The notes: a model not told the origin generated them from the sequence alone. A stretch of DNA of 64,000 bases from Kiritimatiellia bacterium (GCA_039807095.1 JBDHQM010000004.1:62425-126424); one strand, 5' to 3'; shown: positions 28,527-46,093, numbered from the stretch's first letter. A program made the numbers and translations.

Positions 28527-28807
28527 ACTCTCCTCCAAACTCAAGGGAACGGGGCACAATCGCGCCAATCCCGGAAATGTCAAACAGACGTGTATATCAC
28601 GGATCACCCCCTCACGCAAGCAACCCTCAGGAGCCGCCAGGTCCATGATGTCAGCCCGGGCTTTGGACAACAGGGCGCAAACACACCGCATTTCCGGCTA
28701 TTTTTGCGTCCCGCAGCGCTCTGTCCCCCCTTCCACACAACGTGTGTTTGTCGCGCGCCTTCCAACAATTAGAATTTCTGTTTCGCCGGGCTTCCAATCC
28801 TTGTAAG

Positions 28808-29290
28808 ATGGACAACGAGACCCAGCGACGCATGAAGCTTTCCAGTCCAGCGTTCAACGATGGCGCGCCGATTCCCGCACGCTTCACGTGTAAGGGCGAA
28901 AACATCTCGCCGCAACTGGACTGGACCGGCGCACCCGCCGCCGATACGCAGAGCTTCGCGCTGCTCGTCACCGATCCCGATGCGCCGGGCGGCACATTTC
29001 TGCACTGGCTCATCTTCAACATCCCGTCCACGTGCCATCGCCTCGATGCGGGGGTCCCGAACAATTTCAAACTCGCGAATGGCGCAGTGCAGTGCGTGAA
29101 CAACTTTGGCCGACCCGGCTACGGCGGACCCTGCCCGCCGCCGGGCGAAAACCATCGCTACTTTTTTGAACTCTTCGCGCTGAGCAGCGCACTCGATCCG
29201 CGCGAAATCGCAACTGCTGCCGACCTGCGCCGCGCGATCGAAAACAAAGTACTCATCCGCGCAAGCCTCATGGGAACGTTCAAGCGCTGA
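28808..29290 (+). CDS. YbhB/YbcL-family PEBP (Raf-kinase-inhibitor-like) protein
   Basis: PEBP signature (DPDAPGGTFLHW, ...GENHRYFFELFAL). Start at MDNETQRRMKLSS. Confidence 0.75.
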   Translation: MDNETQRRMKLSSPAFNDGAPIPARFTCKGENISPQLDWTGAPAADTQSFALLVTDPDAPGGTFLHWLIFNIPSTCHRLDAGVPNNFKLANGAVQCVNNFGRPGYGGPCPPPGENHRYFFELFALSSALDPREIATAADLRRAIENKVLIRASLMGTFKR

Positions 29291-29358: not shown

Positions 29359-31839
29359 TTGCTCACGCTCAACACGAAGGCACAAATGATCGCAGGCGAT
29401 CCGCAGCACCGCTACAACCTGCCTGGCACAATCTCGTTCGAGCACAATATCTTCTCCGGCAAGGAGGGGGAACGCATACGCGTCGAGAAAAAGGGCGGGC
29501 GCACAACTGTCATCGTGAAGCTCGATCAGGACGAGGCGATCTGGGGATTCGGCCAGCGCTTCGACGCTTTCGATCTACGCGGCCGCTCGTTCGAAATTTG
29601 GGCGGAGGACGGATGGAATCAGACACACACCAGCTACTTCGCCATCCCGTGGTTCATCAGCTCCGCAGGCTACGGCGTTTTCGTCAACTCAACGGGGCGT
29701 CTCTCCGTGGATGTTGGCGCGACGACGCCGGATGAATTGCGCATCGAAATGCCGGAGGACGGCGCAGCGGTGTATGGATTCCGCGGAACGCCGCGCGAGA
29801 TTCTCGAGGCATACACACAACTCGTGGGCCGACCGCACCCCGCACCCGACTGGGTATTCCGCCCGTGGATTTCGCGAAACTCCTATCTCGGCGCGCTCGA
29901 AATTGATCGCACCATCGAATTGATGAATCGCTACGGCCTCAAGGCTGGCGTGGTGGTACTCGAAGCGTGGGAGCAGCAGTTCCACAACTTTGCGTTTGAG
30001 GAAGACCGCTATCCGCACCCTGCGGACTGGATCAAGAGTCTGCACGATCGCGACTATCGCGTGATTTGCTGGATCACATCCAGCATCTGGCCGGCCGGCA
30101 GCACGTATGAAGAGGCGAAGCGCCGCAACTTCATCGTGAAGAACGACGACGGCACCGAATACGTGACGCGCTGGATCGAGAACGGGCGCGAGCTGGATTT
30201 CCGCATACCCGCTGTGCGCGAGTTCTGGCGCGACCTGCACCTTCCGCTCATCGCGCTGGGCGTGGACGGGATTAAGACCGATGGCGGCGAGCACATTCCC
30301 GATCCGTGGTTCCACAACGAACACCCCTTTCACTATCAGCGCGCCTCGCTCGACGCATTCGCAAAAGCCGGGCGCACCGGCGTCACCTTCGCGCGATCAG
30401 GCAACCCGCTCGTCGCGGGAAACAGCCTCTTCTGGGCGGGCGACCAATACGCGTCGTGGAGCAACCTGTACGTCGTCTTGCGCGGCGGCCTCTCCGCCGC
30501 GCTCTCCGGCCTCTTCTATTGGGGCCACGACATCGGCGGCTACAGCGGCACGCCGACCAAAGACCTCTATATCCGCTGGCTTCAGATCGGAACTTTCTCG
30601 CCGATCATGCAGCTCCACGGCGAAAGCGCGCGCGAGCCGTGGTATTACGACGAGCAAACCATCGAAATTGCGCGCCACTATTTCGGCGTGCGCGAAAAAC
30701 TTCAGCCCTATCTCATCGCGCTCGCCACCGAGGCGCGCGAACAGGGACATCCGATCTGGCGCCCGATGCCGTGGGTATTCCCCGACGATCCCGCGACGTA
30801 TCGGATCGGCGATCAATTCATGCTTGGTGACGACCTCCTTATCGCGCCGATTTTGAATGAAGCGGGCACGCGCGACATCTATCTGCCCGCAGGCGCGTGG
30901 GTGAATCTCTGGAACGGGCGCACAAACGAAGGCCCGACAACACTGTCCGTCTCCGTGGACCTCAGCATGACGCCCGTCTTCGCGCGTGCGGACGCCTACG
31001 AGCGCTGGAAAGACCTCTTCGCCAATGCGCCGCGCATCCAGCAAAAGCCCTATACCCTTGCGCTCTACGGAAAACAGAACGACCGCGGCATCGTGCCCGC
31101 CGTGCGCTATCTGCGCGGCCAGAAAACGGAAACACTCTCCTTCATCGTCAGCAACAACACCCCCGCAGATGCGCGGCTGAACGCCACGCTCAAACTGCCG
31201 CACGGCTTTACCGCAACGCCCGCCAAAATACAGTCCACCATTGCCGCAAAAGGGGCGGGTCGTCTCGATTTTGTCGTGACGATTCCCGAAGACATCGAGC
31301 CCGGCACCTACACATTCGATCTCAACAGCGCGATCAATAACACGCGCCAACCCACGTTATCCTGGCACCTCGTCCAGCCGTTGCACTGGAAGGCAGTCGG
31401 CCCGTTCAAGGGCGGCGTGGGCTCTGAACAGCCGCTCGACGGCACATCGCCCGATCTCACTGCGACATATCCGCAGGGCAACGCGGAACTGCGCTGGCAG
31501 GAGGTCCCGCTCAGCGCGATGCGCGACGATGGCTATATCGAGTTGGGAAAGTTCATTCGCGGTGAGGGCGGCACAACAACATTTGCTCTCTCCCGCTTCA
31601 CATCCCAGAAGGCACGCCGCGTGAAGCTCGCGCTCGACTCCGGCGACAGCCTCGCAGTTTGGGTGAACGGCGAACAGGTCTGCAACCGCATTGGACACCG
31701 CAACCCCTCCCCCTCGCCCATTGCACCGCAGGACGTGCCCGAAGTTAATTTGCGCGCAGGCGAAAATGAAATTCTGGTTCGCACGAGCCGCGGCCTTGCC
31801 GCGCAGGAATTTTTGGTTCGGATTATTGATTCACAATGA
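29359..31839 (+). CDS. Glycoside hydrolase family 31-like alpha-glycosidase with C-terminal beta-sandwich domains
   Basis: GH31-like (beta/alpha)8 region (RPHPAPDWVFRPWISRNSYLG, GVDGIKTDGGE, WAGDQYASW). The track start at 29359 is TTG. The in-frame upstream sequence encodes a plausible signal peptide but has no canonical start codon. Confidence 0.7.
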   Translation: MLTLNTKAQMIAGDPQHRYNLPGTISFEHNIFSGKEGERIRVEKKGGRTTVIVKLDQDEAIWGFGQRFDAFDLRGRSFEIWAEDGWNQTHTSYFAIPWFISSAGYGVFVNSTGRLSVDVGATTPDELRIEMPEDGAAVYGFRGTPREILEAYTQLVGRPHPAPDWVFRPWISRNSYLGALEIDRTIELMNRYGLKAGVVVLEAWEQQFHNFAFEEDRYPHPADWIKSLHDRDYRVICWITSSIWPAGSTYEEAKRRNFIVKNDDGTEYVTRWIENGRELDFRIPAVREFWRDLHLPLIALGVDGIKTDGGEHIPDPWFHNEHPFHYQRASLDAFAKAGRTGVTFARSGNPLVAGNSLFWAGDQYASWSNLYVVLRGGLSAALSGLFYWGHDIGGYSGTPTKDLYIRWLQIGTFSPIMQLHGESAREPWYYDEQTIEIARHYFGVREKLQPYLIALATEAREQGHPIWRPMPWVFPDDPATYRIGDQFMLGDDLLIAPILNEAGTRDIYLPAGAWVNLWNGRTNEGPTTLSVSVDLSMTPVFARADAYERWKDLFANAPRIQQKPYTLALYGKQNDRGIVPAVRYLRGQKTETLSFIVSNNTPADARLNATLKLPHGFTATPAKIQSTIAAKGAGRLDFVVTIPEDIEPGTYTFDLNSAINNTRQPTLSWHLVQPLHWKAVGPFKGGVGSEQPLDGTSPDLTATYPQGNAELRWQEVPLSAMRDDGYIELGKFIRGEGGTTTFALSRFTSQKARRVKLALDSGDSLAVWVNGEQVCNRIGHRNPSPSPIAPQDVPEVNLRAGENEILVRTSRGLAAQEFLVRIIDSQ

Positions 31840-31886: not shown

Positions 31887-34505
31887 ATGTCCGGATGGAT
31901 CAAAGGCGGTTTCTGGGGCGCGGTACTGATCACCGCGCTATGGCTTCTTGCGCCGCGCCACGCGATGCAGCGCGATGACGGTGTCGTCGAAATCCACTAC
32001 ATGGGCCGCGGTGGTCCGATCAAAGGCGCAATGGACGATGCCGTCCGCGAGTTCGAACGTCTCAGCCGCGAACGGCACGCAGTGGACCCGTCCTATCCGA
32101 TCTATCGCGTGATTTCAGGACAGGACGCCACGCGCAGTCAGACGGAAGACCCGACGCGCTTCCTCGTGAGCCTCGCAGGAGGGATGCCGCCCGACGTAAT
32201 TGACTTCGACCGCTTCGCCATCAGCGAGTGGGCGGCACGTGGCGCATTCACACCACTCGATGATCTCATCGCGCGCGATGCCGCGGCGTGGGCGGCGTGG
32301 CAGCAGAACCCCGATGCGCTGCCGCCGTGGCCGGGCGCTACCGAGGACCCGCCACGCGCCGCGGGCGGCCGCACCGAACCCGCCATCGAACCGCTCGCGC
32401 AAACCAACTTCTTCCCCGGCTGCTGGGACGAAGCGGTCTATCGCAATCCCGTCACCGGCACCTCCGGGCTCTACGGCATTCCGTCCGACACCGACAACCG
32501 CGTACTCCTCTACAACAAGGACATCCTCGTTCGCAACGGCTACACAAACGAGCTCGGTGAAGCGCAGCCGCCCCGCACCTGGGAAGAGCTCGAAGAAATG
32601 GCGATCCGCATGACGGAGCGCGACGAAAAGGGCCGCATCAAAACAATCGGATTCATCCCGAACTACGGAAACTCGTGGCTCTACATGTACGGCTGGCAGG
32701 CAGGCGGCGAATTCCTCAGTCCCGACGGACGCCGAATCACGCTCAACGATCCGCCCATTGTCGAGGCGCTCACCTTCATGACGCGCATTTATGAAAAACT
32801 CGGCGGCGCAAACAGCGTGTATGCGTTCCAGTCCACCTTCCAGGGCGGCGATCTCGATCCATTCGTCCTCGGCAAGGTTGCGATGAAAATTGACGGTGTC
32901 TGGGTGATGTCCGATCTCGCGTTCTACGGGCGCGATCTCAATATCGCCGCAGCCCCCGCCCCCATGCCAGCGCGCGAACTGGCGAAAGGGCGCAAACCGA
33001 TCTCGTGGCTCGCGGGTTGGGCATACGCAATTCCCTCCACCGCGCGAGAAAAGAAGGGCGCGTGGGAACTCATCCGCTTTCTCACCAGCCAGCGCGCGAT
33101 GGAAATCATGCGCGCATCCGAAAATTTCACCGCGATGAGCCAGGGCCGCCCCTACCTGCCCCGCCAATATCCGCAGCGTTCACAGAATGAGTGGGTCTTC
33201 AAAACCTACGTCGAAAACAATCCCGCGCTCGAACCGAAATTCAAGCAGGCCATGCGCGTCTATAACGACCTGCTAGACAACTCGCGATTCCGCCCCGTCA
33301 CGCCTGTCGGCCAGAAGTTGTGGAACTGCCAGATATGGGCGATGGAAGACGCCATCTTCGGCAAGAAGTCGCCGCAGGAAGCGCTCGATTACTATACCGC
33401 CATCGCCCAGCGCGATCTCGACATGGTCATCACCCCGCCTCAAGGCGTGACCATCCGGAGTTGGACCTGGTTCTTCTGGACATACGGCGCGCTCATCGTC
33501 GCGGTCATCATCCTCGTCTACCGCCGCGAGACGCGACCGGTGACGACCACCAAAAAATCGCGGAACTTCCTCGCCGGTCTCTTCACCGGTGAAAGCAAAT
33601 CGGACGCGCTCCTCCTCGGCAGCAAAGGCACCTACTTCCGCTCCCAATGGCGCGACGGCATCCTCTGCGCCCTACCCTGGCTCATCGGCTTCATCGTCTT
33701 CACCGGCGGCCCGCTCCTCTTCTCCATCGTCATCAGCTTCTGCCAATTCGATGTGCTCAACCCCGCCGTCTTCACCGGACTGCGCAACTACATCTTCATG
33801 GTCCACGGTGATGAGCTCTTCTGGAAATCGCTCTACAACACCATCTACATGGTCATCGGCATCCCGCTCGGCATGGCGGTCGGACTCGGCCTCGCCATGC
33901 TGCTCAATGTGAAAGTGCGCGGAATCGCCGTCTGGCGCACGCTCTTCTATCTCCCCAGCATCGTCCCCGCCGTCGCCTCCAGCATACTCTGGATATGGAT
34001 CTTCAACCCGCAGAGTGGCCTCTTCAACGCCATGCTCGACCTCGTCGGCATCTCCGGCCCGAACTGGCTGCAGGACGAAGCCACTAGCAAATGGTCGCTC
34101 ATCCTCATGGGCCTCTGGGGCGCAGGCGGCGGCATGATCATCTGGCTCGCCGGCCTCAAAGGCATCAGCGAAACCTACTACGAAGCCGCCGCGCTCGACG
34201 GCGCCAACGCGTGGCAGCAATTCAAATACATCACCATCCCCATGATGACGCCCTACATCTTCTTCAACCTCGTCATGGGCCTCATCGGCACATTCCAAAT
34301 CTTCACCCAAGCCTTCATCATGACCCAGGGCGGCCCCGTGAACTCCACCCTCTTCTTCGCCTATCACCTCTTCAACAACGCTTTCCGCTACATGCAAATG
34401 GGCTACGCCGCCGCCATGGCGTGGTTCCTCTTCCTCATCGTCGTCATTCTCACCGCCTTCCAAATGAAAACCTCCAAACGCTGGGTGCACTATGAAGAGG
34501 ACTGA
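31887..34505 (+). CDS. Fusion protein: N-terminal family-1 extracellular solute-binding protein fused in frame to a MalF-type carbohydrate ABC permease
   Basis: One continuous 872-aa ORF. Residues ~1-520 are SBP_bac_1-like after an N-terminal membrane anchor. Residues ~520-872 are a 6-TM permease with the EAA loop (EAAALDGANAWQQFKYITIPMM). Confidence 0.7.
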   Translation: MSGWIKGGFWGAVLITALWLLAPRHAMQRDDGVVEIHYMGRGGPIKGAMDDAVREFERLSRERHAVDPSYPIYRVISGQDATRSQTEDPTRFLVSLAGGMPPDVIDFDRFAISEWAARGAFTPLDDLIARDAAAWAAWQQNPDALPPWPGATEDPPRAAGGRTEPAIEPLAQTNFFPGCWDEAVYRNPVTGTSGLYGIPSDTDNRVLLYNKDILVRNGYTNELGEAQPPRTWEELEEMAIRMTERDEKGRIKTIGFIPNYGNSWLYMYGWQAGGEFLSPDGRRITLNDPPIVEALTFMTRIYEKLGGANSVYAFQSTFQGGDLDPFVLGKVAMKIDGVWVMSDLAFYGRDLNIAAAPAPMPARELAKGRKPISWLAGWAYAIPSTAREKKGAWELIRFLTSQRAMEIMRASENFTAMSQGRPYLPRQYPQRSQNEWVFKTYVENNPALEPKFKQAMRVYNDLLDNSRFRPVTPVGQKLWNCQIWAMEDAIFGKKSPQEALDYYTAIAQRDLDMVITPPQGVTIRSWTWFFWTYGALIVAVIILVYRRETRPVTTTKKSRNFLAGLFTGESKSDALLLGSKGTYFRSQWRDGILCALPWLIGFIVFTGGPLLFSIVISFCQFDVLNPAVFTGLRNYIFMVHGDELFWKSLYNTIYMVIGIPLGMAVGLGLAMLLNVKVRGIAVWRTLFYLPSIVPAVASSILWIWIFNPQSGLFNAMLDLVGISGPNWLQDEATSKWSLILMGLWGAGGGMIIWLAGLKGISETYYEAAALDGANAWQQFKYITIPMMTPYIFFNLVMGLIGTFQIFTQAFIMTQGGPVNSTLFFAYHLFNNAFRYMQMGYAAAMAWFLFLIVVILTAFQMKTSKRWVHYEED

Positions 34506-34520
34506 CCGCCTCCGCATAAA

Positions 34521-34572
34521 AACTTCCAAGCGTTGGAAACCCGAAACGACCGAACTTCCAATCGTTGGAACT
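34521..34572. repeat. REP-like intergenic element copy 2: tandem pair of ACTTCCAA-N3-TTGGAA palindromes 32 bp apart
   Basis: Sites at 34523-34537 (ttccaagcgttggaa) and 34555-34569 (ttccaatcgttggaa). Linker aacccgaaacgaccgaactt is similar to copy 1. Lies in the 75-nt gap between the two permease genes. Confidence 0.55.
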
Positions 34573-34580
34573 TTCTAACC

Positions 34581-36290
34581 GTGCCAACCACCGCCACACA
34601 CTCCGTCGAAGCCGATGCGAAGCAAGCGCGCGAAGCGCGGCGTCTTCGCGCCATCGCGCGTGTCCTCGTCATTTATGGACTCCTCCTCGGCGGCGCGATT
34701 CTCTTCTCCCTCCCCTTCGTCTGGATGATCGGCACCAGTTTCAAGGTGGACCGCGAAATGTTCAGCGGGAAACTCACCTTCTGGCCCATGCAACCCATCC
34801 CCGTGCGCGCCTCGCCCTATCTCGACACGCGCTACTTCGATGAACCGGACGACAGCGAATACCCCGCTATCGAACCGGAACTCCTCTCCGCAATCGCCCG
34901 CGAGAGCGCGGCCCTTCCGCCCAACATTCGCGACGAGAAAAACGTCTCCGCCATCATCGCGCCCGGCATCTATAAACGCCTGCGCGAAACCATCCCCACC
35001 ACCGCATGGAGCGGCCCGCAGGACGCACTCCTGACCGAAATCAATTCACGAATCAACTCCGAGCTCGTGGACGAAACCACGCGCAAAATCTATCGCCACC
35101 TCAGCCTCGCAGGCGTACGCGTACGCAGCCTCGACCTGCAGGAAATGGACCTCACCAGCGGACACCGCATCTCCGACTTCTGGCAGCTCGAAGGACCCGC
35201 TACCCTAGACGACGGCGAAGAAGGCGCAACCAAACTCGCCGACATCGTCTACAACTTTCCCGAAAAGAAAGGCGGTGAAATTCGCCTCACCCGCACACTC
35301 ACTCTGCCCTTCCCCGTTGACCGCCTGCACCGCATCCAACTCTTCATGCGCCCCGACGATTCGTGGCACTCCATGGATTTCTACATCGAGAAACAGGGCA
35401 AAGTCTTCAAGGGCAAACGCTCCGAATACATGGGCAACTTCCAGTGGACCATCGTCTCGCTGCAAGACTATGGACCCGACGATGAATCCACCAAAATTCG
35501 CCTCTGGGTCCCAATGGTTGAGCAGCAGGGCATCACCTCCGATATCACCGCGCCCGATCAGGTGAAGCTCACCCTCGTCCTCCGCCAGAACGACGCGCTC
35601 GGCGCGTGGTGGGCAAAAATTCAGCGCAACTATCGCGGCGCGCTCGACTACATTCCCTTCTGGCGCTACGCCGCTACCAGTGTCTTCCTCGTCATCCTCA
35701 ACATCGTCGGCACCCTCTTCTCCTGCTCACTCGTCGCCTTCGCCTTCGCGCGCCTTCAATGGCCCGGTCGCAACCTGAGCTTCGGCCTCATGATGGCGAC
35801 CATGATGATCCCCGGGCAGGTGACGATGATCCCCTACTTCCTCATCATCAAATGGCTCGGCTGGTACAACACCCTCACCCCCCTCTGGGTCATGAGCCTC
35901 TGCGGCAACGCATTCAACATCTTCCTGCTCCGCCAGTTCATGAAAGGAATCCCGCGCGACCTCGAAGACGCCGCCCGCATTGACGGCTGTAACTCGTGGC
36001 AGGTCTATCTCCACGTCATGCTCCCGCTCATCAAACCGACCCTCGCCTGCATCGCCATCTTCACCTTCATGGGCGTGTGGAACGACTTCATGGGCCCCCT
36101 CATTTATCTCAGCGACCAGCGCCTCTATCCCCTCTCCCTCGGCCTCTACGCATTCAACGTCCAGGCAGGCGGCAGCTTCGGCATGATGATGGCAGGCTCC
36201 CTCCTCATGACCCTCCCCGTCATCCTCATCTTCTTCTTCGCCCAGAAATACTTCATCCAAGGCGTCACCCTCACCGGCATGAAGGGCTAA
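34581..36290 (+). CDS. MalG-type carbohydrate ABC permease with ~300-aa periplasmic insertion between TM1 and TM2
   Basis: C-terminal 280 aa are a canonical MalG-like permease (EAA loop EDAARIDGCNSWQVYLHVMLP). Residues ~60-360 are a soluble insert with no recognisable family. Start taken at GTG 34581 because the track's ATG at 34533 overlaps the REP-like element; either is possible. Confidence 0.65.
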   Translation: MPTTATHSVEADAKQAREARRLRAIARVLVIYGLLLGGAILFSLPFVWMIGTSFKVDREMFSGKLTFWPMQPIPVRASPYLDTRYFDEPDDSEYPAIEPELLSAIARESAALPPNIRDEKNVSAIIAPGIYKRLRETIPTTAWSGPQDALLTEINSRINSELVDETTRKIYRHLSLAGVRVRSLDLQEMDLTSGHRISDFWQLEGPATLDDGEEGATKLADIVYNFPEKKGGEIRLTRTLTLPFPVDRLHRIQLFMRPDDSWHSMDFYIEKQGKVFKGKRSEYMGNFQWTIVSLQDYGPDDESTKIRLWVPMVEQQGITSDITAPDQVKLTLVLRQNDALGAWWAKIQRNYRGALDYIPFWRYAATSVFLVILNIVGTLFSCSLVAFAFARLQWPGRNLSFGLMMATMMIPGQVTMIPYFLIIKWLGWYNTLTPLWVMSLCGNAFNIFLLRQFMKGIPRDLEDAARIDGCNSWQVYLHVMLPLIKPTLACIAIFTFMGVWNDFMGPLIYLSDQRLYPLSLGLYAFNVQAGGSFGMMMAGSLLMTLPVILIFFFAQKYFIQGVTLTGMKG

Positions 36291-36379
36291 AGCCCACCCT
36301 CTCCGTAGTCTACGGTCTACAGTCTACGGTCTAAGGTCTATCATCTGCACTAAACCCAATTTGTGATACGTTCTCTTTT

Positions 36380-37648
36380 ATGCGCTTTCTCCATTTCAGC
36401 CTGATCGCGAGTCTCTCATTCGCGACATCGGCAAGTTTTGCCGACTCGCTCTCCGCACTTTCGTGGGACGATGCGCGCGAACTCGCCGCGCGCTCGAACT
36501 CCACCCTCCTCGCAGGCCGCGAGACGGTCGAGCAGGCGCGCTACAACTATCAAGCCGCGCGCGCAACCTACTGGCCCACCATCTCCGGCTCCGCAGGCTA
36601 TTCGCGGTCTGACTCCGATTCGCGCGAGGGCGGACCCTCCGACTCGACGTCGCTGGGCCTTTCCGCGCAATACAACCTCTTCTCCGGCTTCGCCGACCGC
36701 GCGCGTGTCGAGCAAACCGAAGCGGCGCTCAACCGCGCGCTTGCCGACTGGCAGGGCACGCAAGCCGATGTCAGCGCATCGCTGCGCCGCGCATTTCTCC
36801 GCCTCCTCTACGCGCAGCAGCGAGTAGACCTCTCCAAATCCATCGCCGCGCGACGCCAGCAAAACCTCGACCTCGTTCAGCTCCGCTTCGACAGCGGCAG
36901 TGAAAACAAAGGCTCCCTCCTCCGCGCCAAAGCCGTCACCAGTCAGGCCAACGCAGAAGTTGAACAGGCAACGCGCAGCATCGCCGTACAGCAGCGCGAA
37001 CTTTCCAACGCCCTTGGACAGGACCCGACCGACTCCTGGATTGTACGTGGCGAGTGGGCGCACGCCGCGCCCGACGCCGACCCGCTCTGGGCGGACCTCA
37101 TGCGCAACACGCCCGCCGTACGCGCGGCGCAGGCCAATCTCGAATCAAGCAAGGCCGCCGTCCAACTCGCCCGCGGCTCGATCTATCCCTCCCTCGCGCT
37201 CCGCGCGGGCATAGACCGTAGCGGCGAGGAATGGCCGCCCGATAACGACGCTTGGAGCGTCGGCGCAACCCTCTCCGTCCCGCTCTTCACAGGCGGACAG
37301 AACATCAACAAACTCTCCAGCGCGCAGGCGGCGCTCCGCCAGTCGGAGGCACAGCTCCACAGCGCCGAACAGGCGGCGCTCCTCGACCTCGAATCCGCAT
37401 GGACAAATCTCCGCGACGCACAACAGCGCCGCGACGTACAAGCCGCCTTCCTCGATGCCGCCGAAGTGCGCGCCGAAATTGCGCGCGAACAATACGCCAA
37501 CGGCCTGCTCAGTTTCCAAAATTGGGACCAAATCGAAGACGAACTCACCTCGAGCCAGCAGTCTCTTCTCACCAGCGACCGCGATGCCGCCATCGCCGCC
37601 GCTGAATGGGATCGGGTCCGCGGCATCTCAACCCTGGTTATGCCATGA
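36380..37648 (+). CDS. TolC-family outer-membrane efflux protein
   Basis: Signal peptide, two repeat halves with an OEP/TolC helical-barrel pattern. Overlaps the downstream adaptor gene by 4 nt. Confidence 0.8.
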   Translation: MRFLHFSLIASLSFATSASFADSLSALSWDDARELAARSNSTLLAGRETVEQARYNYQAARATYWPTISGSAGYSRSDSDSREGGPSDSTSLGLSAQYNLFSGFADRARVEQTEAALNRALADWQGTQADVSASLRRAFLRLLYAQQRVDLSKSIAARRQQNLDLVQLRFDSGSENKGSLLRAKAVTSQANAEVEQATRSIAVQQRELSNALGQDPTDSWIVRGEWAHAAPDADPLWADLMRNTPAVRAAQANLESSKAAVQLARGSIYPSLALRAGIDRSGEEWPPDNDAWSVGATLSVPLFTGGQNINKLSSAQAALRQSEAQLHSAEQAALLDLESAWTNLRDAQQRRDVQAAFLDAAEVRAEIAREQYANGLLSFQNWDQIEDELTSSQQSLLTSDRDAAIAAAEWDRVRGISTLVMP

Positions 37649-38604
37649 AAAAAGTACTCCTGCTCTTACTCGTGCTCGCCATCGCTGGCGGCGGATGGTG
37701 GTGGTGGCGCGGCCGCACCGAAAAGAAAGATGCGCCGCAATATCGCGAGATCACCGTTGAGCGCGGCAACATCCGCGAGACGGTCCTCGCCACCGGAACA
37801 CTCGAACCGCAAATCCGCCTCGAACTCGCCAGCCCCGTCGCCGGACGCCTCGAAGAAGTCCTCGTCCGCGAGGGCGACAGCGTCACCAAGGGGCAAATCG
37901 TTGCGTGGGTCAGCTCCACGGAGCGCGCAACCCTCCTCGATGCCGCCCGCGCGCGCGGCCCGGAAGAATTGGCGAAGTGGGAAAAACTCTACAACCCGAC
38001 TCCCGTCATTGCGCCGCTCGATGGCACCGTCATCGCGCGCTCGCTCGAGCCCGGCCAAACCGTCGGCTCCACCAGCGCCATCATCGTTCTCTCCGATCGC
38101 CTCATCGTTCGCGCCGATGTGGATGAAACGGATATGGCGCGAATCGCGTTGCAGCAGAAAGCCGAAGTGCGACTCGATGCCTATCCCAACCAAATCCTGC
38201 CCGCGCGCGTAGAACACATCGCCTACGAATCGGAAACCGTGAACAACGTCACCATCTACAAGATTGAGGTGCTTCCGGAAAATCCGCCCGCATTTATCCG
38301 GAGCGGAATGTCCGCCGCGGTCACCTTCATCGTCAAACAAACGAACGACGTCCTCATCCTCCCCGTGAGCGCCGTGCAAATGCAGAACGGCGGCGCAACC
38401 GTCCTCACCCCATCCCCGCATCATAAACCGGAGCCAACGGCGAAATCCGTCACGGTCGGAATGGACGACGGGCGCAACGTGCAAATCCTCGACGGGCTCA
38501 ACGAAGGCGACACGGTGCTGATTCAAAACTACGATTTCGTCACACGCGCAAGCGACAACGCGAAAAGCTCACCGCTCTCGCCCTTCGGACGACGCCGCCA
38601 CTAA
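37645..38604 (+). CDS. Efflux periplasmic adaptor (membrane-fusion protein, MacA/HlyD family)
   Basis: N-terminal anchor MKKVLLLLLVLAIAGGGWWWW, then biotinyl-like/beta-barrel MFP domains. ATGA overlap with the TolC gene stop. Confidence 0.8.
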   Translation: MKKVLLLLLVLAIAGGGWWWWRGRTEKKDAPQYREITVERGNIRETVLATGTLEPQIRLELASPVAGRLEEVLVREGDSVTKGQIVAWVSSTERATLLDAARARGPEELAKWEKLYNPTPVIAPLDGTVIARSLEPGQTVGSTSAIIVLSDRLIVRADVDETDMARIALQQKAEVRLDAYPNQILPARVEHIAYESETVNNVTIYKIEVLPENPPAFIRSGMSAAVTFIVKQTNDVLILPVSAVQMQNGGATVLTPSPHHKPEPTAKSVTVGMDDGRNVQILDGLNEGDTVLIQNYDFVTRASDNAKSSPLSPFGRRRH

Positions 38605-38623
38605 TCCGGACGCGACCTGCGCC

Positions 38624-40603
38624 ATGAATACCCCGCCCCTCATAGAAGTCAAAGACGCCACCAAGGTGTACACCCTTGGCGAAGAAAAGGTACACGCGCT
38701 GCGCGGCGTCTCGCTTTCGATTCAGGAGGGCGACTTCGTCGCCATCATGGGCGCATCCGGCTCTGGCAAATCCACGCTCATGCACATCCTCGGCCTGCTC
38801 GATGTGCCGGACAGCGGCTCCTACAAACTGCACGGCCGCGAAGTTTCCTCCTGCACGGAGGACGAACTCGCGCGCATCCGCAACGAGGAATACGGATTTG
38901 TCTTTCAACAATTCAACCTCCTCGCGCGCACCACGGCGCGCGAGAACACCGCACTCCCGCTGCTGTACAGTCCAAACGGCGTGGATATCGCGCGCGTGGA
39001 ATCGCTTCTCAAACAAGTCGGTCTCGGCGACCGGATGGGGCACAATCCGAATGAGCTGTCTGGCGGCCAGCAGCAGCGTGTCGCCATCGCCCGTGCGCTC
39101 ACAACGAACCCGCGCATCCTTTTCGCCGATGAACCGACCGGCAATCTCGACTCCGCCAGCGCGCACGACATCATGAGCCTCCTCAAACAGCTCAACGCGC
39201 AGGGCATCACCATCATCCTCGTCACGCACGAACGCGATGTCGCCGATTACGCGCGCCGCATCCTCCACATGCGCGACGGAGAGATTCAGCGCGAGGAAAC
39301 CCACGACCCGAGCCCGCTCGCCAAATCGGCCCCGCGCGACGAAGCGCAGACCGCGCGCGATGCGCGCGCATCCTGGCGACACAACCTCCGCGCATTCGGC
39401 ACCTATTTTCGCCTCGCCGGACGCGCCCTCTGGGCGCACAAAATGCGCGCCTTCCTCTCCATGCTCGGCATTCTCATCGGCGTCGCCTCCGTCATCGCCA
39501 TGCTCGGCATCGGCGCGGGCGCAAAAGAAGCGATCAGCACCCAATTCGCCAGCCTCGGCTCAAACCTGCTGATCCTCCGCCCGGGTGCCCGACAGACGGG
39601 CGCCGTCCGCACGCAAGCTGGCCAAAGCAGCCGCCTCACCCTCGACGGCGCGCACGCGATTGCCGCTTCAGTCCCCGACATCGAACTTGTTTCCGCAACG
39701 CTGTCGCGTCGCGCGCAAATCGTGTTTCAGGGAAAAAACTGGAACACCGAAATCAGCGGTGTCGAACCCGCAAACGAACAAATGCGCGCGCTGCAACCCA
39801 CCGCGGGCCGCTTCATCACCGAGGCGGATGTGCAATCCCGCGCGCGTGTCGCTCTCGTCGGCCGCACCATCGTCCGCGAAGTGTTCGGTGGGCAAAATCC
39901 CATCGGCGAGCAACTCCGCATCAACCGCGTAATCTTCCAGGTCATCGGCGTCCTCCCCGAAAAAGGCTCCTCGCCCTGGCGCGACCGCGACGACGTCGTC
40001 GTAGTACCCATCTCCACCGCCATGCACCGCCTCGCAGGTGTGGACTACGTGGACGCCATTGAAATGCAAGTCGCCAGCGCCAACCGCGTCAACGACGCGC
40101 AAGAAGCCGTGATGGCATTCATGCGCCAGCGTCTGCGCCAACCCCCATCCGCACCCGACACGGTTTCCATTCAAAATATGGCGGAAATGCTTTCCGCACT
40201 GACAGAAACCAGCCGCACGATGTCCGTCCTGCTCTCGGGGATTGCCGCCATCTCCCTCATCGTCGGCGGCATCGGCATCATGAACATCATGCTCGTCTCC
40301 GTCACCGAGCGCGTGCGCGAAATCGGCGTACGCAAAGCAGTCGGCGCGCGCCGTCGCGACATCCTCGGCCAATTCCTCGTCGAAGCCATCGCCGTAAGCG
40401 TTACCGGCGGATTATTCGGACTCCTCCTCGGCTCCGGCGCCGCCTTCGCCATGTCGCAGTTCGCAGGCTGGGTCGTCATCGTCACCCCGCGCGCCATCGC
40501 AATGGCCGTCGGCTTCTCCGCCCTCACCGGTCTGATCTTCGGCCTCTGGCCCGCCCGCAAAGCCGCCATGCTCAACCCCATTGACGCCCTTCGCTACGAA
40601 TAG
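38624..40603 (+). CDS. macB: MacB-type ABC transporter (fused ATPase + FtsX-like permease)
   Basis: Walker A GASGSGKST, signature LSGGQQQRVAIARAL, Walker B ILFADEPTGNLD; C-terminal 4-TM FtsX/MacB permease with a large periplasmic domain. Confidence 0.9.
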   Translation: MNTPPLIEVKDATKVYTLGEEKVHALRGVSLSIQEGDFVAIMGASGSGKSTLMHILGLLDVPDSGSYKLHGREVSSCTEDELARIRNEEYGFVFQQFNLLARTTARENTALPLLYSPNGVDIARVESLLKQVGLGDRMGHNPNELSGGQQQRVAIARALTTNPRILFADEPTGNLDSASAHDIMSLLKQLNAQGITIILVTHERDVADYARRILHMRDGEIQREETHDPSPLAKSAPRDEAQTARDARASWRHNLRAFGTYFRLAGRALWAHKMRAFLSMLGILIGVASVIAMLGIGAGAKEAISTQFASLGSNLLILRPGARQTGAVRTQAGQSSRLTLDGAHAIAASVPDIELVSATLSRRAQIVFQGKNWNTEISGVEPANEQMRALQPTAGRFITEADVQSRARVALVGRTIVREVFGGQNPIGEQLRINRVIFQVIGVLPEKGSSPWRDRDDVVVVPISTAMHRLAGVDYVDAIEMQVASANRVNDAQEAVMAFMRQRLRQPPSAPDTVSIQNMAEMLSALTETSRTMSVLLSGIAAISLIVGGIGIMNIMLVSVTERVREIGVRKAVGARRRDILGQFLVEAIAVSVTGGLFGLLLGSGAAFAMSQFAGWVVIVTPRAIAMAVGFSALTGLIFGLWPARKAAMLNPIDALRYE

Positions 40604-40652: not shown

Positions 40653-41636
40653 TCAAGGCGGATAAAGCCGGGTATCATTCGTGAATAGATTCCGTTTCGG
40701 ATCAAACTCCACATTCCGGTCATTCGGCGTCGGATTCAGATAATAGGTAAAACGCCCATTTATGCGCCCGCGAATCTGCCCATACAATGCGTTTGTGATC
40801 TCGCCAACCGCATTCGTTTGCGTGCGAATGCGAAAATAATACAAATCCCTTCCATCATCGTTTGTCTCTGTAACCGCGCCATCGGATCGCTCAAAGATCA
40901 AAAGACGGTTGGTATAGCCATCCGCAGGAGCCTCATACGCCGACCAGAAGTCGCTCCCAAGCTTCGCGCGAGGATTCCCATCTGGATGTCTCGCGATCAG
41001 CCCATCTGTAGCATTCGCAAACATAAACTCACATCGCGACTCATAACGAACAGCCAGCCCCGCCGCATTCGTCTCGTCAATCGTCATGCCCCACTTGAAT
41101 ATCAAATCCGAAGCGATCCCGTTGCCGTGCGGCGCAAGAAAGTCTCCCTGAACAAAGTCGTATGCGGATACTTCCTCCATCCGGTATTCACCAACCCGCT
41201 TGAAAGGAGTAATCCATTCGTTTTCAACAGTGCGGATGAACATGGGGATTTGATTCTTTTTCCTCTTCAGCACCACCGATTTCTCTATAGACCACGCCCG
41301 CACGGATTCTCCTTTCGCGTCGAGGTCATAATTATCCGCAGCAATCTCGGTTTTCAGCGTCGTTCTGTAGTAGCCTTCTTTTTGAAAGCGGGCAAACACC
41401 CCTCCTTCAGTTTCCCCTTCAACACGATACACGCCATTGCTATCCGTCAGGCCATCGAAGAAAGATCGTTTATGTGTTGAGGAAAGCTGCAAGAACTCCC
41501 CCTTTACGGAAACGCCAGAAATCGGCAATCCTGCATCATCTCGAACTACCCATGAAACAGACGCAGGAACAACCGGTTGTGCCAACGCCGAACCCACAAG
41601 AAGTGACACCAATATGCAAACTCCACAAATCTTCAT
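40653..41636 (-). CDS. Secreted paralog A1 (signal peptide + carboxypeptidase-regulatory-like beta-sandwich + conserved C-terminal domain)
   Basis: Signal peptide MKICGVCILVSLLVGSALAQP (start at the internal ATG 41636). C-terminus YYFRIRTQTNAVGEITNALYGQIRGRINGRFTYYLNPTPNDRNVEFDPKRNLFTN is shared with A2-A5. Confidence 0.75.
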   Translation of the reverse strand: MKICGVCILVSLLVGSALAQPVVPASVSWVVRDDAGLPISGVSVKGEFLQLSSTHKRSFFDGLTDSNGVYRVEGETEGGVFARFQKEGYYRTTLKTEIAADNYDLDAKGESVRAWSIEKSVVLKRKKNQIPMFIRTVENEWITPFKRVGEYRMEEVSAYDFVQGDFLAPHGNGIASDLIFKWGMTIDETNAAGLAVRYESRCEFMFANATDGLIARHPDGNPRAKLGSDFWSAYEAPADGYTNRLLIFERSDGAVTETNDDGRDLYYFRIRTQTNAVGEITNALYGQIRGRINGRFTYYLNPTPNDRNVEFDPKRNLFTNDTRLYPP

Positions 41637-41750
41637 CGCCAATCTCGGTTTTCTACAAAACTGCTTCCAGGCCTGACGCGGCATAAATCGCTTCCCGACG
41701 CACACACCTCTAGCAGCCGCTAAAACCACTGCCAACAGTCGTCAGCCTCA

Positions 41751-42728
41751 TCACGGAACACTCACCGCTTCCAGCGGAGCGAGATTCGTGAATAGATTCT
41801 GTTTCGGATCAAACTCCACATTCCGGTCATTCGGCGTCGGATTCAGATAGTAGGTAAAGCGCCCATTAATCTGCCCGATAATTTTTCCGTACAGCGCATT
41901 CGTTACGACTCCGGCTTCGTTCGTCTGCGTCCGAATGCGGAAGTAGTACAAATCGTGGCCGTCATCATTGCTCTCGGAATTGGTGCCGTTAACTTTCCAA
42001 TAGAGAGACATTCGATTCGTGTACCCGTGTGTTGGCGCCTCATACGCTGAAAGATACGCACTACCCTCATTTCGGCTGTCGCCCTTACCGCCATCCGAAA
42101 TACCTCTACAAATCCCGTCTACACCGTTCGGCATACTGATCTCCAAATTCATCTCCATGTCGAGCGCCCTCCCGGCTTTGTTTGTAGAATAAATAACCAT
42201 ATTCCAGTTGTAGCGCAGATCGCCCACAATCCCGTCTCCATGCGGCGACACGAACTGGCCATTCAAAAGGTCATACTGCGATATCGCATGAAGGCGATAT
42301 TTACCAACGCTTTCAAAGGTGGAGATGTAGGGATTCGCAACAGCCCGGCTGTACATCGGAATCGGATGCCTCATCCTTTTCAATACAACGGGAATCGTTA
42401 TATCCCAGTGACCCACCTCCACTCCCTCGCCCGGATCAAGAGGGATACTTGTAACCGTTTCGTAGTATCCCTCCGCGCGGGCACGCACACCAACCCCAAT
42501 GAGTGCCGATCCCTTCGCAACAAACACTCCATTCGTGTCCGTCACGCCCTCAAACCGATCTCGAGCGCCCGCATTGCTCACATCCCGAAAACCACCATCG
42601 AGAGAAACGCCGCCCACCGGCTGACCGCGGTCGTCACGGACAACAATCGTTGCCGTGGTTGGCACATACGGCTGGGCAAGGCCGAGCTGGGCAAGAAGGC
42701 AAAAACAAATACAAACAATACGCTTCAT
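41751..42728 (-). CDS. Secreted paralog A2
   Basis: Signal peptide MKRIVCICFCLLAQLGLAQP; N-terminal ...VVRDDRGQPVGGVSLDG...TDTNGVF (CarbopepD_reg-like); C-terminal YYLNPTPNDRNVEFDPKQNLFTN. Confidence 0.8.
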   Translation of the reverse strand: MKRIVCICFCLLAQLGLAQPYVPTTATIVVRDDRGQPVGGVSLDGGFRDVSNAGARDRFEGVTDTNGVFVAKGSALIGVGVRARAEGYYETVTSIPLDPGEGVEVGHWDITIPVVLKRMRHPIPMYSRAVANPYISTFESVGKYRLHAISQYDLLNGQFVSPHGDGIVGDLRYNWNMVIYSTNKAGRALDMEMNLEISMPNGVDGICRGISDGGKGDSRNEGSAYLSAYEAPTHGYTNRMSLYWKVNGTNSESNDDGHDLYYFRIRTQTNEAGVVTNALYGKIIGQINGRFTYYLNPTPNDRNVEFDPKQNLFTNLAPLEAVSVP

Positions 42729-42756
42729 CTGGCTTTTCCCTCTGTCCTCCGCTCAC

Positions 42757-43740
42757 TCAAGGCGAATAGGCTCGATCATCATTCGTAAATAGATTCTGCT
42801 TCGGATCAAACTCCACATTCCGGTCATTCGGCGTCGGATTCAGATAGTAAACAAAGCCTATATGTGCCGTTTTCGAATCTCGCGCATCGAATTGGATGGG
42901 ACCCTTGATTTTGCCGTAATGCGCGTATAGCAGCCGCCCTTCTTCATCAACCACACTGCGCACACGAAAGAAATAGCCGAGGCAGTCCTGCGGTTGCGTC
43001 TGATAGTAGCCCGTTTCGGGAATATAACCGATACTGCTCGTCCAGATGTTTGAATACGATGACTGGGGAGCTGTACGCGGCAGGCGGAAAAACGACCCCT
43101 TCGGCCCTGCGTCTTGAATTATTTGGATGCCATCCGCCGGACCCGCGAACTGCAACACAAGTTGTGCTTCAAAATCCCTCCAATCGGTGACTCGTCGCGT
43201 TAACGTCAACAAAAAATCGCCAATCTCCCCGCTCCCATACGGAGCGACCCAGTCTCCGATCAGCAGGTCATACCCGACGGGCTCGCCCGCAGCAGGCAGT
43301 TCGCTTTCAATTGGGATTCGTTTCGCATACATCGGAGCCGGGGCAATAATTTTTCGCAATGTAATGGAGACCTCTGTATTCCACGGCTCCCATCGCCCTC
43401 TAACCGCATTTGTAAATACGATTTCAATTCCCTTCGTTGGGTAGTAGCCATCTTTTTGAGCAGCGCACGTCACCAACGAGTTGCCGACGGCCTCGGCAGA
43501 AAACAATCCATTCGAATCGGTTTGCCCCTGAATTGAAAACGGCCGAATGCCCCATCCCTCTCCGGCGGGAATGTTTTTACTGAATTCCACACTCGCCAAG
43601 GCGTCGGCAACCGGAGCGCCTTCCTCATCCACGACCCTTGCGACAATCCTCGCGTTTAAACGCCTAATCTGAGCCAAGGATTCGAAAGGCAATCCCGACG
43701 CAAAAACAATTGCGACAACGAGCAAGACTCTAAGTTTCAA
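42757..43740 (-). CDS. Secreted paralog A3
   Basis: Signal peptide MKLRVLLVVAIVFASGL; ARVVDEEGAPVADALASVEF...GQTDSNGLFSAEA; C-terminal YYLNPTPNDRNVEFDPKQNLFTNDDRAYSP. Confidence 0.8.
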   Translation of the reverse strand: MKLRVLLVVAIVFASGLPFESLAQIRRLNARIVARVVDEEGAPVADALASVEFSKNIPAGEGWGIRPFSIQGQTDSNGLFSAEAVGNSLVTCAAQKDGYYPTKGIEIVFTNAVRGRWEPWNTEVSITLRKIIAPAPMYAKRIPIESELPAAGEPVGYDLLIGDWVAPYGSGEIGDFLLTLTRRVTDWRDFEAQLVLQFAGPADGIQIIQDAGPKGSFFRLPRTAPQSSYSNIWTSSIGYIPETGYYQTQPQDCLGYFFRVRSVVDEEGRLLYAHYGKIKGPIQFDARDSKTAHIGFVYYLNPTPNDRNVEFDPKQNLFTNDDRAYSP

Positions 43741-43831
43741 GGTCCCTCTCCAGCCATTTGCTGTGACTTATTTCGTTTGTTCATTGGTCGTTCTGTTTTG
43801 GGGGAGATTCAATGACAGCCGGTCAAACATC

Positions 43832-44821
43832 TCACGGCGCGCGCACTTCCTCCAGCGAGGAGAGACTTGTGAGGAGATTCTGCTCCGGATCAAACTCCAC
43901 ATTCCGGTCATTCGGCGTCGGGTTCAAGTAGTACAGGAAGGAGATACGCGCATTCTCACGCGCAAGACCAGAGACCAGAAAGGCTCCATAAATCTTCCCG
44001 TACTGGGTACGAATAATGCCTCCTTTTTCGTCAACTTCTGATCGCACCCGAAAAAAGTAGTTGGGCCGAGAGTCATCTCCAACGTCTCCATACCCGCCTT
44101 CCCCGGGGGTCCGACCCCACCGAACGACAATATTGCTCCTATAGCCATCAATCGGCGGTATCGGGGACAGCCGCAGAGCGCTCCCTCCTGCAGCAATTAT
44201 ATCCGCCTCCAAGATGCCGTTCTCCACCCCCGGGACGCTGACGATCAACGTGCTCTCGTAGTCATCTTCGTTTGTAATGCGGCGCTTAAGTTCGATGACA
44301 ATGTCTGCACAAATGCCCTCCCCTCGAGGCTGAACCCAATCGCCTTTTTCCAGATCATAAGCACATGGCGCACCCACTTCCGGGATTAAAGTGTCAACAC
44401 GCTTGGCAAACATCGGGATTGGATTGCCGACCCTGTGCAACACGGCAGTTACCGCATTCTTGTCGGGATCAAATGGCTGCCAGGGGCCATTACCTTCTTC
44501 TCCCAGACGATAGAAATACAGTTGTTTCGACCACGAATAGTAGCCTTCCCTTCTCGCGCTGACCCCTATTGATCCCGCGCCTGTCGCACTTGCCCTAAAA
44601 AACCCCGCCGCGTCAGTTGTCCCCTTGATGTTTTGCCCCCTGTGATCTCCAATCCATGCGTTACCACCCTGATCAAAGCCCGCACCTATCGTCGCATTCG
44701 CAACGGGCCTCGCATCATCATCAACAACGCGAACGGTCACACTCAACCGAGCAGGTTGCTGGCCCCAGGCAAACAGCCCAACAATGAAATAGAGCAAAAT
44801 TGTGCTAACAAGTTTCTTCAC
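43832..44821 (-). CDS. Secreted paralog A4 (GTG start)
   Basis: MKKLVSTILLYFIVGLFAWGQ signal peptide; VRVVDDDARPVANATIGAGF...TDAAGFFRA; C-terminal YYLNPTPNDRNVEFDPEQNLLTSLSSLEEVRAP. Confidence 0.8.
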   Translation of the reverse strand: MKKLVSTILLYFIVGLFAWGQQPARLSVTVRVVDDDARPVANATIGAGFDQGGNAWIGDHRGQNIKGTTDAAGFFRASATGAGSIGVSARREGYYSWSKQLYFYRLGEEGNGPWQPFDPDKNAVTAVLHRVGNPIPMFAKRVDTLIPEVGAPCAYDLEKGDWVQPRGEGICADIVIELKRRITNEDDYESTLIVSVPGVENGILEADIIAAGGSALRLSPIPPIDGYRSNIVVRWGRTPGEGGYGDVGDDSRPNYFFRVRSEVDEKGGIIRTQYGKIYGAFLVSGLARENARISFLYYLNPTPNDRNVEFDPEQNLLTSLSSLEEVRAP

Positions 44822-44825
44822 TGAT

Positions 44826-44996
44826 TCACCTCTCCCACTTGGCGAAACGCATCAAACAGTTTGTAAATATAGAAGTAGGCCATGTCCTTCAAATCACTAT
44901 GGAGCCAACGGGTATCGTAGGCCCCTCTAGCACGCCCCCAGCCGTTCAGATTTCTCGCTCCATCCGCCTGCAGATAATATTCAAGCCGAAACATCA
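44826..44996 (-). pseudogene. Relic copy 3 of the 3' end of the alpha/beta-hydrolase gene (56-aa ORF)
   Basis: My translation MFRLEYYLQADGARNLNGWGRARGAYDTRWLHSDLKDMAYFYIYKLFDAFRQVGEV aligns with the hydrolase C-terminus IGWPRRDNDWRHSDIKDIAYPFTFRIFDKITQDGGLQ. Lies 4 nt 5' of A4, mirroring the hydrolase/A5 junction. Below the ORF-track size cutoff. Confidence 0.55.
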
Positions 44997-45010
44997 CTAC
45001 CGGCGAAGGA

Positions 45011-46069: not shown

Positions 46070-46093
46070 GCTCCGATCTGTTCCGTCGTCACA

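Follow-up and report, generated by a model that had tools for sequence, protein, structure and literature searches.

The stretch of DNA considered here is a 64,000-nt window from a Kiritimatiellia bacterium (GCA_039807095.1, JBDHQM010000004.1:62425-126424), and all positions below are counted within this window. It carries two adjacent open reading frames (ORFs), ORF1 and ORF2, which appear to encode the membrane and receptor part of an ATP-binding cassette (ABC) importer of the sugar type, with a solute receptor fused to one permease subunit and a large periplasmic insert in the other. Lengths are given in amino acids (aa), TM denotes transmembrane and AF2 an AlphaFold2 model, whose confidence is expressed as pLDDT. 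The two genes and their parts are the following:

31887..34505, plus strand: ORF1, solute-binding domain fused to a MalF-type permease, a single ATG-to-stop frame of 872 aa
31893..31949, plus strand: N-terminal TM helix of ORF1, aa 3-21 (helix in the AF2 model)
31983..33431, plus strand: periplasmic solute-binding domain, family 1, sugar type, aa 33-515 (two-lobe fold in the AF2 model, pLDDT ~90)
33465..33533, plus strand: second TM helix of ORF1, aa 527-549, predicted to bring the chain back to the cytoplasm (AF2 helix; hydropathy 1.95)
33540..33659, plus strand: cytoplasmic linker, aa 552-591, predicted disordered (AF2 pLDDT <50)
33672..34475, plus strand: MalF/UgpA-type permease core with six TM helices, aa 596-863 (BPD_transp_1, NCBIfam, six hydrophobic segments)
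34182..34241, plus strand: EAA coupling-helix motif of ORF1, EAAALDGANAWQQFKYITIP (motif scan and alignment A3)
34581..36290, plus strand: ORF2, MalG-type permease with a periplasmic insert, 569 aa from GTG
34662..34742, plus strand: TM1 of ORF2, carrying the conserved LPFVWMIGTSFK motif (hydropathy 2.25; alignment A1)
34770..35648, plus strand: periplasmic insert in the TM1-TM2 (P1) loop, ~290 aa (about 280-295; residues ~64-356 of the 569-aa protein; AF2 model, no family match)
34857..35090, plus strand: helical subdomain, insert aa 30-107 (DSSP helices 30-44, 56-74, 77-81, 84-94 and 97-107 in the model)
35103..35585, plus strand: predicted beta-jelly-roll subdomain resembling the fold of carbohydrate-binding modules (CBMs), insert aa 112-272 (eleven-strand beta-sandwich in the model)
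35649..36290, plus strand: MalG/UgpE-type core, TM2-TM6 (BPD_transp_1, NCBIfam and PDB matches)
35964-36023, plus strand: EAA-like motif EDAARIDG of ORF2 (motif scan; conserved in alignment A1 and family-wide)

Domain composition and topology of the two subunits

Both proteins carry the transmembrane domain (TMD) of type I ABC importers above its gathering score, as the Pfam family BPD_transp_1 (PF00528) was matched at aa 660-859 of ORF1 (49.2 bits, cutoff 26.4) and at aa 402-578 of ORF2 (76.2 bits, same cutoff), where it is the sole Pfam match. The longest possible frame of ORF2 runs from TTG 34533 to 36290 (585 aa), and the database copies of the protein begin at GTG 34581, the annotated start that gives 569 aa. 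Each protein also has the EAA coupling-helix motif, EAAALDG at aa 766 of ORF1 and EDAARIDG at aa 478 of ORF2, and residues E766, A768, D771, G772 and A773 of the ORF1 motif are invariant in alignment A3. The N-terminal part of ORF1 was assigned to SBP_bac_1 (aa 91-405, 94.6 bits, cutoff 26), SBP_bac_8 being matched as well, and its nearest structures are all oligosaccharide-binding proteins, as expected of the sugar-type family-1 solute-binding protein (SBP) of a CUT1 importer. Receptor domain and TMD lie on one polypeptide, an arrangement that is kept among the relatives and that defines the ABC importers with a fused substrate-binding domain (SBD). These results, together with the AF2 model and the hydropathy profile, agree with an initial sequence-only reading of the locus, which had described ORF1 as one uninterrupted frame joining a family-1 SBP to a complete MalF-type permease.

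Comparison with NCBIfam placed the ORF1 core nearest to UgpA (2.1e-30), then GlcT and MalF, and the ORF2 core nearest to UgpE, MalG and GlcU (~1e-26), every one of them under its equivalog cutoff. Neither the maltose equivalogs (NF008232/NF008231; MalF 75.5 against 392, MalG 91 against 261) nor the glycerol-3-phosphate equivalogs (NF007852/NF008210; UgpA 106.6 against 335, UgpE 93.5 against 297) were reached, and assignment to a specific curated family was rejected since all these scores were far below cutoff. In the PDB, the ORF1 core matched SugA and MalF (8e-20) and AlgM1 (5e-14), and the ORF2 core matched AlgM2 (1e-28) and SugB (4e-26).

The topology of ORF1 was examined by a hydropathy scan and by an AF2 model built from an alignment of 37 sequences (mean pLDDT 77). 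The scan revealed a TM helix at aa 526-544 followed by the six core TM segments, and both this helix and the N-terminal one, which are additional to the core, are kept in all relatives tested. The sequence of the first helix (..LTALWLLAP) is retained across phyla, including Planctomycetota, and a proline follows its hydrophobic core, two features for which the helix is probably an uncleaved anchor and not a cleaved signal peptide. The second helix is directly followed by positively charged RRETRPVTTTKKSR, which argues that the linker after it, 34 to 77 aa long among the relatives, is cytoplasmic. With two conserved extra helices and a cytoplasmic linker, the receptor is therefore, in the modelled topology, a periplasmic loop between two helices of a subunit with eight TM helices. 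The N-terminal membrane anchor of the sequence-only reading is thus present as a helix, but the SBP is not simply anchored by its N-terminus, as it lies between two conserved TM helices. A Foldseek search with the solute-binding domain returned CpMnBP1 (4r9f) as the best match (TM-score 0.78 on the target, 22% identity), the same structure being found by phmmer against the PDB (5.5e-22), and further structural neighbours were Thermotoga maritima MalE3, a trehalose/maltose-binding protein and a sophoro-oligosaccharide-binding protein. The modelled fold would accordingly be of the sugar type, a label that does not specify which sugar.

In ORF2, positively charged AREARRLRAIAR precedes TM1. The protein aligns to MalG and UgpE from their residues 82 and 70 but only from its own residue ~375, and therefore ~290 extra residues lie between TM1 and TM2; SugB/AlgM2-type PDB chains are likewise matched from position 52-92, whereas the ORF2 core starts after residue ~355. 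The extra segment ends in AWWAK..RNYR, the usual lead-in to TM2 in MalG-type permeases (alignment A1), and conserved permease motifs flank it on both sides within one frame. No Pfam or NCBIfam match was found for aa ~70-375. These data bear out the earlier description of a MalG-like partner with a soluble TM1-TM2 insertion of no recognisable family, and correct its size from the ~300 aa first proposed to ~280-295 aa. Modelled alone with an alignment of 36 sequences, the insert gave a confident predicted fold (pLDDT 90.9, pTM 0.86) in which the helices are followed by the beta-sandwich and a C-terminal helix closes the structure. A Foldseek search of the PDB with this model, which had been suggested as a check, returned nothing at E<=1e-3, so that the resemblance to CBMs stands at the level of fold only. 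The model shows the beta-jelly-roll that is typical of CBMs, and no membership of a CAZy CBM family was detected from sequence (no Pfam CBM match). When 1.84 billion representative proteins were scanned with HMMER using the insert as query, only 95 relatives were recovered. Wherever enough of the protein was present, the insert occupied the same position in permeases of ~550-620 aa, and it was never free-standing nor joined to other proteins. Over 76 family members the sandwich residues Y161, D196, W199, H200 and G210 (insert numbering; DxSWH motif) are conserved, the first four being Y224, D259, W262 and H263 in the 569-aa protein, and in the MalG core ~45% of positions are at least 90% conserved over 76 sequences of the Planctomycetes-Verrucomicrobia-Chlamydiae (PVC) superphylum.

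Authenticity, distribution and conservation of the pair

The receptor fusion and the insert are both genuine. That SBP and permease, or insert and permease, are truly separate genes joined by misassembly or frameshift has a negligible probability. The proteins of 872 and 569 aa recur unchanged in an NCBI entry and in the contig L001, which Logan assembled independently from run SRR19427039, and the database proteins P0001 (ORF1) and P0121 (ORF2, 569 aa) are 100% identical to those of the window. The same fusion had been proposed for a search in related genomes, and it was found there. Each protein has more than 120 full-length homologous clusters, a count that is a lower bound, and the 120 best clusters per query are full length (~790-910 and 530-600 aa), 57-100% identical and of the same domain composition. 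In a locus survey with one genome per GTDB species, in which the insert served as confirmation query, at least 134 places were confirmed and 80 loci were examined. In these loci the fused SBP/MalF ORF lies directly upstream of the insert-bearing MalG ORF on the same strand, except at contig ends, at seven frame-broken loci and at L063, where no SBP/MalF match lies upstream. The seven split loci (L018, L034, L060, L078, L046, L049 and L073) have obvious frame breaks in otherwise collinear sequence, and the large majority of the 80 loci contain single ORFs. As the independent assemblies, the homologues, the locus survey and the permease motifs on either side of the insert all speak against it, an artefact or mis-join was rejected.

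According to record titles, the family occurs in Kiritimatiellia, Verrucomicrobiia (Chthoniobacterales, Opitutaceae), Lentisphaerae and Planctomycetota (Phycisphaerae, Planctomycetaceae), and single contigs labelled Armatimonadota, Anaerolineales, Gemmatimonadetes, Chlamydiota and Baltobacteraceae also carry members. Receptor-permease fusions of this kind had been called rare in the sequence-only reading. This is correct for characterised sugar importers but not for the family itself, which is spread over the PVC superphylum with matches in at least 134 GTDB species and has a precedent in Bdellovibrio. A neighbour-joining tree of subunit 2 mirrors PVC taxonomy, and the members with non-PVC labels nest one by one inside PVC clades, which suggests, on the basis of their sequences, mis-binning or sporadic horizontal transfer. 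A set of such loci (L055, L058, L047, L057 and L084) includes contigs that binning had assigned to Anaerolineales, Armatimonadota, Baltobacteraceae and Gemmatimonadetes that nest singly in this way; within it, L055 is closest to L058 of Phycisphaerae, with which it shares the sequence of the N-terminal helix.

The four domains differ in their identity to the window as follows:

SBP: median 51%, range 34-75%, Planctomycetota median 42%
MalF core: median 72%, range 49-83%, Planctomycetota median 56%
Insert: median 32%, range 23-51%, Planctomycetota median 26%
MalG core: median 72%, range 57-91%, Planctomycetota median 67%

The conservation of the permease cores between phyla appears unusually high for CUT1 permeases. 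The cassette appears to be old and to have been passed on largely vertically across the PVC superphylum, tied to no particular catabolic locus.

Two further observations concern individual members. In nine Planctomycetota loci (L059, L062, L066, L067, L072, L075, L076, L080 and L085) the open frame of the fused subunit spans 937-1063 aa from stop to stop, an excess of 70-190 aa, and BLAST aligns only the C-terminal half of the SBP; from their sequences, these members may have a very divergent N-lobe or an extra N-terminal region. In L068, which carries the Chlamydiota label, the fused gene is present twice, at 1355-3766 and 6052-8463, 4697 bp apart, flanking the insert-bearing permease on both sides. 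The probable cause is an assembly that was wrapped around or duplicated, and not biology.

Neighbouring genes, ATPase genes and repeats

Two further features of the window are needed here:

29359..31839, plus strand: GH31 glycoside hydrolase, alpha-xylosidase-like (Pfam GH31 domains; NF007940 6e-104, below cutoff)
34524..34570, no strand: palindrome TTCCAA-N3-TTGGAA in the spacer between ORF1 and ORF2, present as a pair of copies with 32-bp spacing (window motif count)

The gene order in the window is PEBP (28742..29290), GH31, the ORF1-ORF2 pair and a TolC-HlyD-MacB efflux operon, the first four genes being co-oriented with gaps of 47-76 bp. Only L001, which comes from the same organism, and L086, a relative at 87% identity, keep the order PEBP-GH31-pair. 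In relatives at 82%, 79%, 73%, 66% and 60% identity the pair is surrounded by unrelated genes, often housekeeping ones, and in 4 of ~80 loci a GH31 gene is located no more than a few kb from the pair. All-versus-all clustering of the flanking ORFs of these ~80 loci revealed no family present in more than 8 of them, and conserved synteny was rejected on this ground as a clue to the substrate. GH31 is a lineage-specific neighbour and not a conserved partner of the transporter pair; the link to GH31 and PEBP on which the sequence-only reading had relied does not survive beyond the 87% relative. The efflux operon (36380-40603; TolC-like (OEP), HlyD-like and MacB-type ABC genes) stands directly downstream on the same strand. 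It adjoins the pair in L001 and L086 only and is probably unrelated to it.

The 64-kb window contains no MalK/UgpC-type ATPase gene, its only ABC ATPases being MacB at 38624 and an exporter at 59375-61189. A scan for Walker A and LSGGQ motifs in the flanks of all examined loci yielded four ABC ATPase-like ORFs, one of which is of the sugar-importer type. This gene (L045, 307-2217, minus strand) lies 3 kb upstream of the pair in the opposite orientation and scores above the UgpC-subfamily cutoff (472 versus 432 bits), which is unique among the 80 family loci, and it is a candidate for the type of the missing energiser. The earlier statement that no ATPase gene is adjacent holds for the window, and 79 of the 80 loci likewise lack one of the sugar-importer type. 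As the pair has neither conserved neighbours nor an adjacent ATPase gene, it is an autonomous two-gene cassette, outside any conserved polysaccharide-utilisation locus, that would borrow its ATPase.

Six copies of the palindrome TTCCAA-N3-TTGGAA were counted in the window, where 0.11 would be expected. They form three intergenic pairs, each with a spacing of exactly 32 bp: at 12936-12982 between convergent gene ends, at 28760-28806 just upstream of PEBP and at 34524-34570. The pair in the ORF1-ORF2 spacer is kept in L001 and in L086. Folded as RNA, the palindrome reaches only a modest stability (z = -2.2). The repeats may represent a REP-like element or an operator, but the idea that they specifically tie GH31 to ORF2 as an operator was weakened by the pair between convergent gene ends. 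The interval from the ORF2 stop to the TolC-like gene contains four to five tandem copies of the heptamer GTCTAC(N) (36303-36340; 3 overlapping matches against 0.03 expected), which overlap a weak promoter-like site at 36316-36344. Further downstream, on the minus strand at 40653-49157, seven tandem genes encode proteins of ~325-365 aa with signal-peptide-like N-termini, which form two paralogue groups (five 30-51% identical to one another, and the pair 45011 and 46709 26% identical). Weak CarboxypepD_reg-like matches were obtained for three of these seven proteins, and the genes have a lower GC content (50-55%) than the DNA around them (60-65%). An Rfam scan of the whole window gave no match, and a promoter/terminator scan of 28.6-36.5 kb gave nothing usefully above shuffled expectation.

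Proposed transport mechanism and comparison with known systems

We propose that the pair provides the membrane and receptor components for a type I, CUT1-type (MalFGK2-like) ABC importer whose ATPase is encoded elsewhere, a reading to which we assign a probability of roughly 0.7. Subunit 1 would hold the receptor between its two extra N-terminal helices, ahead of the six-helix MalF-type core, and since the receptor is built into this subunit, the complex would have exactly one receptor, tethered at both ends beside the pore. Subunit 2 would contribute the MalG-type core, with its first periplasmic loop enlarged to the helical and beta-jelly-roll domain. In the maltose importer of E. coli, MalG P1 and MalF P2 contact MalE, and the P1 loop of MalG meets the N-lobe of the docked binding protein (PMC6906923); the insert is therefore expected beside the tethered receptor, and its P1 position suggests an accessory role at the receptor/pore interface. 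By analogy with the MalF P2 loop, it could position or cap the tethered receptor, an assignment that we hold tentatively, at somewhat less than even odds, and a lectin-like module that keeps glycan chains near the receptor is about equally possible. "Tethered or extra periplasmic binding modules", as the system was first described, is a fair description. Because both subunits keep EAA coupling helices, two copies of a UgpC/MalK-type ATPase, encoded elsewhere, would have to drive the complex. The energiser would be a shared "MsiK-type" ATPase from elsewhere in the genome, and ATP-driven import by means of such a trans-encoded UgpC/MalK-type protein is likely. The TMD relatives in the PDB (SugA/B, MalF/G, AlgM1/M2) are all type I sugar importers, which counts in favour of import.

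Several points weigh against this proposal. Energisation is assumed, and the sugar substrate is suggested by family resemblance, with equivalogs far below cutoff and a best SBP match of 22% identity. The contact between insert and SBP is an analogy and not a result. Most of the MalF-core portion of the ORF1 model has a pLDDT of ~40-65, a low confidence that would be expected when the subunit is modelled alone. Finally, the unusually high conservation of the TMDs may hint at a role beyond ordinary nutrient uptake.

In one alternative, the pair is an ATPase-less membrane complex for sensing, envelope maintenance or scaffolding and not an ATP-driven importer. It would account for the missing ATPase gene, as no sugar-importer-type ATPase lies within 8 kb at 79 of 80 loci, and for the housekeeping-level conservation of the TMDs across phyla (MalG core 57-91% identity), housekeeping genes being also frequent among the neighbours. 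We nevertheless regard it as very improbable, because the EAA coupling motifs, which are not known to do anything but dock the ATPase, are invariant in both subunits and because a UgpC-type ATPase lies near one member. CUT1 systems that share an unlinked ATPase are, moreover, well known: MsiK of Streptomyces and MsmX of Bacillus serve operons that hold receptor and permease genes only. The absence of an adjacent ATPase gene here is alike, although the hosts of those systems are Gram-positive. The pair might also belong to an operon with GH31 and PEBP that serves the use of oligosaccharides, and be its dedicated importer, taking up alpha-xyloside or alpha-glucoside oligosaccharides for, or made by, the GH31 enzyme. 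The co-orientation and short gaps of the four genes, the order maintained in L001 and L086, the proximity of GH31, at a distance of a few kb, in 4 of ~80 loci and the identical palindrome pair upstream of both PEBP and ORF2 agree with such an operon. It is unlikely, however, given the entirely different surroundings at 82% identity and below and the lack of any flanking family shared by more than 8 loci; the further palindrome pair at 12.9 kb, where two genes converge, shows that this element is not an operon-specific operator, and a neighbour confined to one genus would hardly set the specificity of a family with 72% TMD conservation across phyla. GH31 may point to alpha-xyloside/alpha-glucoside oligosaccharides in this organism only, and with low confidence.

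A further alternative concerns the insert, which could be a true CBM that catches longer periplasmic glycans and passes them to the tethered receptor, and the system would then be an adaptation to the "selfish" import of polysaccharides into the large periplasm of PVC bacteria. The family-wide conserved sandwich residues Y, D, W and H are typical of sugar sites and the insert is periplasmic by topology, but jelly-rolls are also common protein-protein modules, an ephrin receptor, MAM and phage fibre proteins being among the same matches, and no Pfam CBM was matched. We consider a true CBM possible, with odds of about one in three. Compared with the beta-jelly-roll CBMs (CBM11 1v0a; CBM4, 22, 27, 35 and 61), the insert has 5-14% identity and no sequence family match, has an extra helical subdomain and sits in a permease loop instead of being appended to an enzyme.

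The importer that we propose resembles E. coli MalFGK2-MalE in its heterodimer of MalF-type and MalG-type TMDs with EAA coupling helices, in its family-1 sugar-binding receptor, in an eight-TM MalF-like subunit with two helices before the six-TM core (PMC6906923) and in the large periplasmic domain that accompanies the receptor, which is MalF P2 in E. coli (PMC6906923). By contrast, the E. coli receptor is free, whereas here it is covalently set between the two extra helices; the periplasmic domain of E. coli is a ~185-aa Ig-like domain in MalF P2, whereas here ~290 aa of helices and jelly-roll are placed in the P1 loop of the MalG-type subunit; no malK gene is present in the operon here; and the MalF and MalG equivalog scores are far under cutoff (75.5 versus 392; 91 versus 261). 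The LpqY-SugABC, UgpAEC-B and AlgM1M2SS-AlgQ2 systems have the closest solved or curated TMDs to both cores but differ in their free or lipid-anchored receptors, their short P1 loops and an ATPase gene that is usually in the operon.

Fusion of the receptor has precedents. As summarised in PMC6906923, a functional MalE-MalF fusion transporter of Bdellovibrio bacteriovorus (Licht et al. 2019, Res Microbiol 170:1) fixes the receptor:transporter ratio at 1:1. This Gram-negative system (PDB 6FFL) also has one family-1 SBP fused to a MalF-type CUT1 subunit, but it belongs to another phylum, 6ffl matches ORF1 only distantly (aa 226-409, E 9e-5) and that summary reports no insert-bearing MalG partner for it. 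In importers of the GlnPQ and OpuA type the SBDs are covalently joined to the TMD (PMC3971661; PMC11065425), and this linkage is described as giving a fixed stoichiometry and a high local concentration (PMC3971661), as it would here. They are homodimeric amino-acid or betaine systems of Gram-positive bacteria, of the PAAT and QAT families rather than CUT1. Each of their complexes carries two or four SBDs, which are joined by a single end only, whereas the present heterodimer would have one SBD anchored at both ends. Searches of the literature found nothing on this architecture in Kiritimatiellota, Planctomycetes or Verrucomicrobia and nothing on CBM-like domains within permease loops; a 2026 review of bacterial glycoside transporters mentions neither fusions nor Verrucomicrobiota or Planctomycetota, and searches of NCBIfam and the PDB gave no curated family or solved structure with this architecture. 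The pair is best described as a MalFGK2-type importer with a known kind of change, the receptor fusion, and an analogous accessory loop domain.

Taken together, these results describe an uncharacterised family, widespread in a poorly studied superphylum, that departs from the textbook sugar ABC importer in three ways: two TM helices enclose the receptor as a loop, here in Gram-negative bacteria; the P1 loop of the MalG-type subunit accommodates a large folded domain; and the ATPase gene is systematically separate. It would be a candidate case, judged from the model, of a lectin-like fold embedded in a permease, and as a natural 1:1 receptor-transporter complex it would be useful for structural and single-molecule studies of docking and substrate handover. 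More speculatively, and in our view improbably, the cassette could be an ancient signature importer of the PVC superphylum that combines receptor, lectin-like domain and channel, is inherited vertically with cores at housekeeping-level conservation and serves a core function. If this were true, the doubly tethered receptor and the permease-embedded glycan-holding domain would be adapted to the enlarged PVC periplasm, for instance for the recovery of a common envelope or storage saccharide and not for opportunistic nutrient uptake. For PVC biology, the analysis flags a conserved two-gene unit and leaves the basic mechanism of ABC importers unchanged.

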